From NCBI RefSeq assembly GCF_003790525.1, contig NZ_CP033635.1: a stretch of 64,000 nt of DNA. The stretch is one strand, 5' to 3'. Below, piece after piece: positions 49,349 to 52,771 of this stretch. The position numbers were made by a program, and so were the translations under genes. The notes beneath the pieces are model-generated. The model worked only from the letters and a program-made list of their open reading frames with translations. It was not told the origin of the DNA and searched no databases. This stretch comes from Escherichia coli (GTDB taxonomy: Bacteria > Pseudomonadota > Gammaproteobacteria > Enterobacterales > Enterobacteriaceae). The stretch's first letter is position 1. Each line of letters opens with the position of its first letter.

Positions 49349-50128
49349 TTAGTAGCTGCTGGCGCTCTTACCGTCGCCGTGGCCCAGAGCTTTCAGCAGG
49401 CTTGCCAGCAAGCTGGAAGCACCAAAGCGGTAGTGACGCGCATCAGCCCAGTCAGCACCGAACAGTTCATCGGCGATGGAGAGATATTTCTGCGCATCTT
49501 CCGCAGTACGCACGCCGCCCGCCGGTTTGAAACCAACGGTTTTTTCTACGCCCATATCGCGGATCACTTCCATCATGATGCGCGCGCTTTCCGGCGTCGC
49601 ATTCACAGCCACTTTACCGGTAGAGGTTTTGATGAAGTCAGCACCCGCTTTGATGGAGATTTCAGACGCTTTACGGATCAGCGCTTCGTCTTTCAGTTCT
49701 CCGGTTTCAATAATCACTTTCAGCAGGACGTTCGCCGCAGCGCAAGCCTCTTTACAGGCTTTCACCAGGTCAAAACCAACCTGCTCGTTACCCGCCATCA
49801 GCGCGCGGTACGGGAACACCACGTCAACTTCATCGGCACCGTAGGCGATTGCCGCACGGGTTTCTGCCAGCGCGATTTCGATGTCGTCGTTACCGTGTGG
49901 GAAGTTAGTTACCGTAGCGATACGGATTTCCGGGGTGCCCTGCTCTTTCAGAGTTTTGCGAGCAATCGGGATAAAGCGAGGATAGATACAGATAGCGGCG
50001 GTATTGCCGACCGGAGTTTTGGCCTGATGACACAGGGCGATCACTTTCTCATCGGTGTCGTCGTCATTCAGGGTGGTCAGGTCCATCAATTTCAGTGCAC
50101 GCAGGCTGCTTGCTTTCAGATCAGTCAT
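49349..50128 (-). CDS. deoC: Deoxyribose-phosphate aldolase DeoC
   Basis: Translation from [82 protein letters not shown]...; 259 aa. Confidence 0.96.
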
Positions 50129-50172
50129 TTCATTCTCCTGGCTTGTCGCCAATAAAATTCACCTTGCGAGTT

Positions 50173-50188
50173 TGTTAGTATTCTAACA
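50173..50188. promoter_or_regulatory. DeoR operator palindrome at the proximal deo promoter (O2)
   Basis: TGTTAGTATTCTAACA, 15/16 match to the TGTTAGAATTCTAACA palindrome, about 45 bp upstream of the deoC start. Confidence 0.65.
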
Positions 50189-50385
50189 TCTACTCCGCAA
50201 CACACTTCGATGTACATCACAATTAAGGAAATCTACTTACAAGTTTGCATCACTGTAATGCGATCTGGTTCAAATAATTCACTTTCAAATGAATGCGTCA
50301 GTGGTGGCAAACGCATCAGGATCAAAGTGAACATCACGAAACTTCTTACAATGGCGCATCACCTTCGGCATAAAAGGAAAAGAAG

Positions 50386-51936
50386 ATGCCCACTTCTCAT
50401 GAAAATGCACTGCAACAACGTTGCCAGCAAATTGTCACCAGCCCGGTACTTAGCCCGGAGCAGAAGCGCCATTTTCTGGCACTGGAAGCAGAAAACAATC
50501 TGCCTTACCCCGCGTTGCCTGCCGAAGCCCGCCGCGCACTGGATGAGGGTGTAATCTGCGATATGTTTGAAGGTCATGCGCCGTACAAACCGCGCTATGT
50601 CTTACCCGATTACGCCCGTTTTCTGGCGAACGGTTCCGAATGGCTGGAGCTGGAAGGCGCGAAAGATCTTGATGACGCACTCTCTCTGCTGACCATTCTT
50701 TACCACCACGTACCGTCGGTCACATCGATGCCGGTCTACCTGGGGCAACTGGATGCGTTGTTGCAACCGTATGTTAGAATTCTAACACAAGACGAGATCG
50801 ATATTCGAATAAAACGTTTCTGGCGTTACCTCGACAGAACCCTGCCAGACGCCTTTATGCACGCCAATATCGGCCCGTCTGATTCGCCCATCACCCGTGC
50901 AATCTTACGTGCAGATGCAGAGCTGAAGCAGGTTTCACCAAACCTGACCTTTATCTACGATCCTGAAATCACCCCTGATGACCTGCTGCTGGAAGTGGCG
51001 AAGAACATCTGTGAATGTAGCAAACCGCACATCGCCAACGGTCCGGTGCATGATAAAATTTTCACAAAAGGGGGCTACGGGATTGTGAGCTGTTACAACT
51101 CACTGCCGCTGGCGGGTGGTGGCAGCACGCTGGTACGCCTAAACCTGAAAGCCATTGCCGAGCGCAGTGAATCGCTGGAGGACTTCTTTACGCGCACTCT
51201 ACCGCACTACTGCCAACAGCAGATCGCCATCATCGATGCGCGGTGTGAATTCCTCTATCAACAATCACACTTCTTTGAGAATAGCTTCCTGGTGAAAGAA
51301 GGGCTGATTAACCCTGAACGTTTTGTGCCAATGTTTGGCATGTACGGACTGGCGGAAGCAGTTAACTTACTGTGTGAGAAAGAAGGAATTGTCGCACGTT
51401 ACGGTAAAGAAGCCACCGCAAATGAAGTGGGTTATCGCATCAGCGCGCAACTGGCGGAGTTTGTCGCCAATACCCCTGTGAAATATGGCTGGCAAAAACG
51501 CGCCATGTTACACGCACAGTCGGGGATCAGTTCCGATATCGGCACCACGCCGGGCGCGCGTTTACCATATGGCGATGAGCCAGATCCGATTACCCATCTG
51601 CAAACTGTCGCGCCGCATCATGCTTATTATTATTCCGGCATCAGCGACATTCTGACGCTCGACGAAACCATCAAACGTAATCCGCAGGCGCTGGTACAGC
51701 TTTGCCTCGGTGCCTTTAAAGCCGGAATGCGTGAATTTACCGCCAATGTCAGCGGTAACGATCTGGTTCGCGTTACCGGTTATATGGTGCGTTTGTCGGA
51801 TTTAGAAAAATATCGCGCCGAAGGTTCACGCACCAACACCACCTGGCTGGGAGAAGAAGCCGCACGCAACACTCGTATTCTGGAACGTCAGCCGCGCGTG
51901 ATAAGCCATGAACAGCAGATGCGCTTTAGTCAGTAA
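50386..51936 (+). CDS. yjjI: Glycyl-radical-enzyme-like protein YjjI (DUF3029)
   Basis: 516 aa; C-terminal RVTGYMVR resembles the glycyl-radical RVSGY motif; translationally overlaps the downstream activase gene. Confidence 0.9.
50772..50787. promoter_or_regulatory. DeoR operator palindrome at the distal deo promoter (O1), inside the yjjI coding frame
   Basis: Perfect 16-bp palindrome TGTTAGAATTCTAACA exactly 599 bp from the 50173 palindrome. Confidence 0.65.
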
Positions 51937-52771
51937 GATTATCCCCTTCTCCTGCGTTGACGGGCCAGGCAGTCGTCTGGCTCTGTTTTTGCAGGGCTGC
52001 AATCTGCGCTGCAAAAACTGTCACAATCCGTGGACGATGGGGCGCTGTAATGATTGCGGAGAGTGCGTGCCGCAGTGTCCGCATCAGGCGTTGCAGATTA
52101 TCGAAGGCAAAGTGGCGTGGAGCGCGGCTGTTTGCGAGCAATGTGATACCTGCCTGAAGATGTGCCCGCAACATGCCACGCCAATGGCGCAATCCATGAG
52201 CGTGGACGAGGTGCTTAACCATGTCCGCAAAGCGGTGCTGTTTATTGAAGGGATAACGGTAAGCGGCGGCGAAGCCACGACCCAGTTGCCGTTTGTGGTG
52301 GCGCTGTTTACTGCCATCAAAAACGATCCGCAACTGTGCCATCTCACCTGCCTCGTGGACAGTAACGGCATGTTGAGCGAAACCGGCTGGGAAAAATTGC
52401 TCCCGGTGTGTGACGGCGCAATGCTCGATCTCAAAGCGTGGGGGAGCGAATGTCATCAGCAATTAACCGGACGCGATAATCAGCAGATCAAGCGCAGCAT
52501 CTGTTTGCTGGCAGAGCGCGGTAAGCTGGCGGAACTGCGTTTGCTGGTAATCCCTGGCCAGGTGGATTATTTGCAACACATCGAAGAACTGGCGGCGTTA
52601 ATCAAGGGACTTGGCGATGTTCCGGTACGCCTGAACGCGTTTCATGCCCACGGCGTGTATGGCGAGGCGCAAAGCTGGCCGAGCGCCACGCCGGAGGATG
52701 TGGAACAACTGGCTGATGCGTTACGGGAGCGCGGGGTGAGTCGGTTAATATTTCCGGCGCTATATTTGTGA
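51908..52771 (+). CDS. yjjW: Glycyl-radical enzyme activating protein (radical SAM) YjjW
   Basis: 287 aa; radical-SAM CNLRCKNC (Cx3Cx2C) plus ferredoxin-like clusters [12 protein letters not shown] and [12 protein letters not shown]. Confidence 0.9.

Follow-up and report, generated by a model that had tools for sequence, protein, structure and literature searches.

Evidence that the deoO1 operator and the distal deo promoter lie within the divergent gene yjjI and constrain its codons

Introduction

The DNA looping system of the deo operon was reportedly worked out by Valentin-Hansen, Dandanell, Hammer and Amouyal between 1982 and 1989, and these classical papers, which are said to predate the annotation of yjjI, reportedly viewed the P1-P2 and OE DNA as a non-coding control region. 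Other systems also have auxiliary operators within protein-coding genes, including lacO2 in lacZ, galOI in galE and a PurR site in purB. Transcriptional interference is known to result from promoters arranged as convergent or antisense pairs, and bidirectional promoters with a symmetric -10 element are known as well. According to the established deo model, multimeric DeoR binds cooperatively to O1, to O2 located 599 bp downstream at P2, and to OE located about 279 bp upstream; the DNA between the operators is looped and both extended -10 promoters are occluded until an inducer frees DeoR. [quoted passage not shown] A later account gives about 600 bp between O1 and O2, places OE about 300 bp beyond O1 and describes binding of DeoR with repression that is relieved by deoxyribose-5-phosphate (PMC8053113, citing Dandanell 1987 and Amouyal 1989). 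One of the deoCABD promoters was placed in 2019 "in an upstream gene, yjjI" (PMC6389913).

The deo system has been known since the 1980s, and the intragenic site is likewise already known, being in print (PMC6389913) and visible in the genome annotation. We found no paper describing a synonymous-site or rare-codon footprint of this site in yjjI; such a footprint is what one would expect here and does not amount to a novel phenomenon. Here we analyze the deoC-yjjI region of Escherichia coli in a stretch of 64,000 nucleotides, referred to as the window, to which all coordinates refer unless another sequence is named.

Results and Discussion

A motif search of the window identified a perfect 16-bp palindrome, TGTTAGAATTCTAACA, corresponding to deoO1, and a copy with one mismatch, TGTTAGTATTCTAACA, corresponding to deoO2. 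With up to three mismatches allowed, these were the only two matches to the palindrome in 64 kb, compared with 0.21 expected, and two matches were reached in 2 of 100 shuffled controls. The pair was also recovered independently by a repeat search, with a start-to-start distance of exactly 599 bp, and deoO2 is located 45 bp upstream of the deoC ATG. The operators and the genes around them are:

50772..50787, unstranded: deoO1, the palindrome, over YjjI codons Y129 (third base)-V130-R131-I132-L133-T134; lowest third-position entropy
50173..50188, unstranded: deoO2, which the deo strand reads as TGTTAGAATACTAACA; it holds the extended -10 of P2 (50180-50188, minus strand) and is kept in the intergenic alignment
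49349..50128, minus strand: deoC coding sequence, first gene of deoCABD (RefSeq annotation)
50386..51936, plus strand: yjjI coding sequence, 516 amino acids, YjjI-family glycyl radical enzyme (open reading frame, RefSeq, family models, homologues)
51908..52771, plus strand: yjjW, activase (radical SAM), overlapping the 3' end of yjjI by 29 nt

RefSeq places deoC and yjjI divergently and 257 bp apart, in the same layout as in K-12 MG1655, where the same operator pair is also separated by 599 bp (NC_000913.3, 4616664-79 for O1 and 4617263-78 for O2). The operator sequences, the O1-O2 spacing and the places of O2, the CRP sites and deoC are all as in K-12. Over 1 kb, the region matches E. coli SMS-3-5 at 99.9% identity, and the locus is present at an identity of at least 95% in 5,423 of 5,426 complete E. 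coli genomes. Since sequence, location ahead of deoC and the 599-bp distance all match the published system, the identification of the palindrome as deoO1, a DeoR operator overlapping the extended -10 of the distal deoCABD promoter P1, is supported at the sequence level, and every sequence-testable feature of the deo O1/O2/OE operator set is found in the sites of the window. A sequence-only reading had claimed that a perfect DeoR palindrome at 50772-50787 lies within the yjjI frame. The open reading frame at 50386-51936 on the plus strand indeed encodes P128-Y-V-R-I-L-T-Q135 across it, and the 599-bp spacing to a near-perfect copy at 50173-50188 upstream of deoC, also claimed there, agrees with the motif search, the repeat search and the published distance.

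In the orientation of deo (minus strand), TG-T-TAGAAT, an extended -10 (TGTTAGAAT), is present in O1 at 50779-87 and in O2 at 50180-88. In the motif scan, the two operators each share sequence with the -10 region of a promoter directed toward deoC. Scanning for TGnTAnnnT picked up both P1 and P2. A consensus promoter scan, which accepts a -35 hexamer only with 4 or more of its 6 positions matching, called neither of them, and no good -35 was found for P1. The elements on the deo side are:

50779..50787, minus strand: extended -10 of deoP1, part of O1 and reading TG-T-TAGAAT in the deo direction, with a start predicted near 50771; from the motif scan, with nine bases invariant in 73 of 73 species
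50797..50832, minus strand: P1 upstream block, a weak -35 and an A/T-rich stretch from about -25 to -60; YjjI codons 138-149, with suppressed synonymous variation and frozen rare codons CGA141 and ATA142
50129..50771, minus strand: predicted P1 leader, about 643 nt long, running antisense across codons 1-129, the 5' UTR and the promoter of yjjI; from the P1 position and the gene coordinates
50206..50221, minus strand: CRP site 1 of deoP2 (TGTGATGTACATCGAA), from the motif scan
50259..50274, minus strand: second CRP-like site upstream of P2 (TTTGAACCAGATCGCA), from the motif scan, partially conserved

We take the site at 50259-50274 to be CRP-2 (CytR-related) of deoP2. The P1 upstream block may, judged purely by its position, represent the -35/UP region of P1. 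Experimental data bear on P1 as well. A sigma70 ChIP-seq site assigned to deoC is located 637-704 bp upstream of this gene (U00096.2 4,614,642/4,614,709, with the deoC start at 4,615,346; PMC6389913, supplementary file 7); it maps to 50765-50832 of the window, bracketing P1 inside yjjI, and lends independent experimental support to the use of the intragenic P1 by RNA polymerase. A motif from CRP ChIP-seq of enterotoxigenic E. coli (ETEC), TGTGATGTATATCGAA, is situated between yjjI and deoC (PMC4287617). The same study reported the motif CGTACCGTCGGTCACA under a CRP peak labelled "(yjjI)" in strain H10407; in the window it occupies 50709-50724, within yjjI and some 50-60 bp past the predicted start of P1 transcription, as a weak CRP match with 3 mismatches. 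An Rfam search of both strands of 49900-51300 gave no matches, and the transcription-start supplement of the ROSE paper lists neither deoC nor yjjI.

When weaker copies of the palindrome were sought, exactly one further site was detected nearby:

51051..51066, unstranded: candidate deoOE, TGATAAAATTTTCACA, a 12/16 match, 279 bp from O1, over YjjI codons 222-227

The OE match by itself is without significance, as about 2 matches at 12/16 are expected per 64 kb by our own calculation. The distance of 279 bp from O1 is presumably the OE distance of the 1986-89 papers; a literature search for a 279- or 878-bp spacing returned nothing useful. The OE codons GAT-AAA-ATT-TTC-ACA are near-invariant, and the O1-OE spacing is fixed at 279 bp across the alignment because the two sites are in frame and without indels between them. 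Based on the 279-bp distance, the "about 300 bp" of PMC8053113 and the sequence evidence, the site at 51051-51066 is presumably deoOE. OE and the P1 upstream region are thus both also within yjjI, which is absent from the earlier reading. On the plus strand, OE reads TGATAAAAT at 51051-51059, and the promoter scan flagged 51032-51059. O1, being a perfect palindrome, also carries TGTTAGAAT on the plus strand (50772-50780), an extended -10 that would read along yjjI. Internal sense promoters at O1 and OE are possible on this basis.

The promoter of yjjI itself could be assigned by prediction:

50312..50352, plus strand: predicted yjjI promoter, low confidence, with FNR-like TTGATCCTGATGCG read on the minus strand at 50312-50325, a -10 TACAAT at 50347-50352 and a start near 50360

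Across genera, only the half GGATCAAAG (50319-50327) of the FNR-like region is conserved. The predicted FNR-like site stands at -41.5 relative to the start implied by TACAAT, a class II geometry, and GGATCAAAG is possibly an FNR half-site at this position. The gene yjjI is listed as directly FNR-activated in PMC3688515, with an FNR ChIP peak at U00096.2 4,615,181, which maps to about 50293 in the window. In Yersinia, yjjI is induced anaerobically. The yjjI promoter region also contains an imperfect inverted repeat at 50278-50331, with arms of 21 nt that are 71% complementary and 12 nt apart.

P1, reading leftward from about 50771, and the predicted yjjI promoter, with its start at about 50360, converge with an overlap of about 410 nt. 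P1 transcripts would run antisense through the yjjI promoter and the first 129 codons, while DeoR at O1 and OE, about +412 and +691 of the yjjI transcript, would stand in the way of polymerases transcribing this gene; the O1-O2 loop would enclose the predicted yjjI promoter together with its FNR site. Since P1 converges on an FNR-dependent yjjI promoter, transcriptional interference, which the sequence-only reading took to be implied, or a roadblock on yjjI is plausible from this geometry.

One could go further and regard the arrangement as a shared switch instead of a passive overlay, with DeoR bound at O1 and OE, convergent P1 transcription, or both, regulating yjjI-yjjW. The enclosing loop, the position of O1 and OE within the transcript and the convergence of P1 over about 410 nt are consistent with such a switch, and so is the finding that the deoC-yjjI-operator arrangement is kept across Enterobacteriaceae and Hafniaceae. 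However, deo regulation alone fully explains this conservation, and DeoR-dependent yjjI expression is not reported in the yjjI-mentioning passages of the literature examined. Two distant yjjI-yjjW loci were examined and have no deo neighbours, giving no sign of a functional link. As Proteus also lacks the adjacency, a functional link between YjjI and the deo genes is rejected for now. Overall, we consider a shared switch possible but rather unlikely. In its fullest form, the embedded deo elements would make the anaerobic, FNR-activated yjjI-yjjW pair responsive to deoxynucleosides, through the loop and roadblocks in the presence of DeoR and through head-on P1 transcription in its absence, and the symmetric TGnTAGAAT could in addition act as a sense promoter from which an internal yjjI transcript starts; this extended proposal is equally tentative. 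If it were true, DeoR and the activity of P1 may be linked to the expression of YjjI, an as yet uncharacterised glycyl radical enzyme.

For the reading of deoO1 and P1 as regulatory DNA embedded in yjjI, a direct prediction concerns synonymous variation. Divergence within E. coli is 2-4%, which over 16 bp has no statistical power, so cross-species data were used. We collected 80 loci, taking a single genome for each species over a range from Escherichia to Proteus, and aligned 81 sequences from -1200 to +1750 around the yjjI start. Divergently adjacent deoC was detected in 75 of the 81 sequences; two loci end short upstream, and the four Proteus loci are without deoC. Entropies refer to the 77 species with deoC-yjjI adjacency and codon counts to the 73 Enterobacteriaceae. 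The aligned species are related and conservation counts do not represent independent events; the remainder of the gene provides a control within the same alignment.

The mean third-codon-position entropy over yjjI is 1.15 bits among the 77 species. The lowest of 511 six-codon windows, at 0.046, comprises codons 129-134 and coincides exactly with O1, and the second-lowest, at 0.11, comprises codons 222-227 and coincides exactly with OE. These are followed by the 3' end overlapping yjjW and by codons 138-146, at about -25 to -55 of P1. With the yjjW ATG at 51908, the last 10-12 or so yjjI codons (51904-51936 of the window) show strongly reduced third-position variation, and the low values at codons 505-516 are what overlapping reading frames or a ribosome-binding site would be expected to produce.

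Within O1, the codons ATT132, CTA133 and ACA134 are each used in 73 of 73 Enterobacteriaceae and GTT130 in 71 of 73. At codon 131, 55 species use AGA and 16 use AAA, with the operator staying at 15/16, showing that an amino-acid change is tolerated while the operator is kept. The adjoining Pro128 uses all four of its codons (CCG 30, CCA 29, CCT 9 and CCC 5). Nine bases, ATTCTAACA, are strictly invariant and correspond to the P1 extended -10 on the other strand, with the few changes falling in the other half-site; these nine bases are under both promoter and operator selection. Only 10 of 239 conserved codons with at least three-fold degeneracy show a single triplet in 95% or more of the 73 species, and 8 of these 10 are found in O1 (4), the P1 upstream block (2) and OE (2). 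The rare codons AGA131, CTA133, CGA141, ATA142 and AGA151 (50776-50838 of the window) represent 5 of the 8 AGA, AGG, CGA, CTA or ATA codons of the 516-codon gene; this cluster covers O1 and the P1 upstream block and is kept across genera. Codon constraint by regulatory DNA is strongly supported by these sequence comparisons. The sequence-only reading had anticipated that the operator constrains yjjI codons, and comparing conservation of the palindrome with synonymous variation, a check proposed there and run here across species, places the lowest variation of the whole gene at the O1 window.

Could the palindrome be kept simply because YjjI needs the peptide YVRILT, with operator likeness and the 599-bp spacing being irrelevant to the coding sequence? 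Part of this peptide does predate the operator, as YjjI of Proteus shares Y129, V130, L133 and T134. Yet selection on the protein cannot freeze synonymous third positions, as seen for CTA, ACA and ATT in 73 of 73 species next to a Pro128 with four codons, and the frozen codons are rare ones. Proteus provides a further comparison: four Proteus species, without deoC upstream and without the operator, encode Y-V-G-(E/S/N)-L-T, keeping the shared residues while their codons vary freely (GTG/GTC/GTT, CTT/CTC/TTG and ACC/ACG). In distant homologues, residues 130-134 and 221-228 are variable, with indels. The peptide reading is refuted by the synonymous-site pattern, and we consider it highly improbable.

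The reading of deoO1/P1 and OE as regulatory DNA within yjjI is also consistent with the residues found there. We take residues 130-134 and 221-228 to be variable loops that tolerate change; with the operators in such protein-tolerant spots, the DNA element dictates the peptide in Enterobacteriaceae. Compared to Proteus, Enterobacteriaceae have Arg or Lys in place of Gly at residue 131 and Ile in place of a polar residue at 132. Hafniaceae, in which deoC is adjacent, carry TGTTGGAATT(C/T)TAACA. The O1-O2 spacing ranges among genera from 567 to 626 bp, with a mode of 601, and a spacing of 599 bp is found only in Escherichia and Salmonella. As every value from 598 to 604 was observed, in addition to 596, there is no sign of a helical-phase requirement, and DeoR looping at about 600 bp appears to be indifferent to helical phase. 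The O2 of Edwardsiella has more than 4 mismatches.

A recurrent 12/16 operator-like sequence, TGTAAGAATTGCCACA, was also detected in the N-terminus of yjjW (loci L008, L016, L020, L021, L031, L041 and L078-L081, at about 2813-2840 of the extracted segments). It encodes the Cys-Lys-Asn-Cys-His-Asn (CKNCHN) radical-SAM motif, is also found in Proteus, and was rejected as a chance match. One assembly in the set, labelled Chryseobacterium sp. 18061 (L064, CACSKA010000015.1), contains a Pluralibacter-like deoC-yjjI locus of Enterobacteriaceae type, with 84% protein identity to YjjI of E. coli and with both O1 and OE, and probably represents contamination or mislabelling. The same Pluralibacter-like O2 and O1 sequences are found in 'Citrobacter sp. 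18056' (L070).

Several lines of evidence show that yjjI is a genuine gene that covers the operator. Pfam PF11230 covers YjjI residues 22-504 (E = 8.5e-220) and TIGR04040 covers residues 11-504 (786.9 bits against a cutoff of 498.3), and this coverage includes residues 129-134 and 222-227. A search of 1.8 billion representative proteins provided 17 distant full-length homologues of 33-57% identity, whose N-termini are colinear with E. coli residues 1-25. In the alignment, columns invariant in 81 of 81 loci fall at the first and second codon positions from about codon 26 onward, well ahead of the operator. The ATG is preceded by a Shine-Dalgarno AAGGA, no start codon is possible upstream of 50386 by open reading frame analysis, the start is annotated consistently in RefSeq and in K-12, and the activase gene yjjW is paired downstream. 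The YjjI protein has been detected by proteomics (PMC6561319). The earlier claim that O1 is overlaid on the 5' part of a divergent coding gene is upheld by the family models and the N-terminal colinearity; a start downstream of 50787, with the operator intergenic, would remove more than 110 family-conserved residues. A mis-annotated 5' end or a decaying yjjI, which would leave O1 and P1 effectively intergenic, is scarcely credible, as nothing was found in its favour beyond the existence of an internal Met60, whereas the family models begin at residues 11-22, the homologues are N-terminally colinear, the codon pattern is visible from about codon 26, and the gene has a Shine-Dalgarno sequence, a detected protein and FNR regulation. 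These results show that O1 is truly intragenic and that yjjI is real, full-length and expressed.

Comparison with Known Systems

The best overall explanation, to which we assign a probability of roughly 0.93, is that deoO1/P1 and OE lie inside the divergent yjjI, with regulatory DNA overriding codon choice, and even residue choice in two variable YjjI loops, wherever deoC adjoins yjjI. The deo elements probably arose within a pre-existing yjjI after the deoC-yjjI adjacency had formed. The locus offers a clean teaching and benchmark case, with a promoter and two operators in the frame of another gene that can be found from frozen synonymous sites and rare codons, and with Proteus as a natural control. 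For annotators, it illustrates that intragenic dips in synonymous variation can locate regulatory DNA to within one codon.

Compared to the deoCABD region of E. coli K-12 (deoP1/O1, deoP2/O2 and OE), the window contains the same system with no mechanistic difference, and differs only as another E. coli strain. The locus resembles convergent promoter pairs in that P1 faces the predicted yjjI promoter with an overlap of about 410 nt, and its palindrome, reading TGnTAGAAT on both strands, resembles symmetric -10 bidirectional promoters. With lacO2, galOI and the PurR site of purB it shares a repressor site within an open reading frame, looping or a roadblock, and codon constraint. While those sites are located in a gene of the regulated operon itself, downstream of its promoter, the deo case places a complete promoter, a primary operator and a third operator antisense in a different, divergent gene with its own FNR control.
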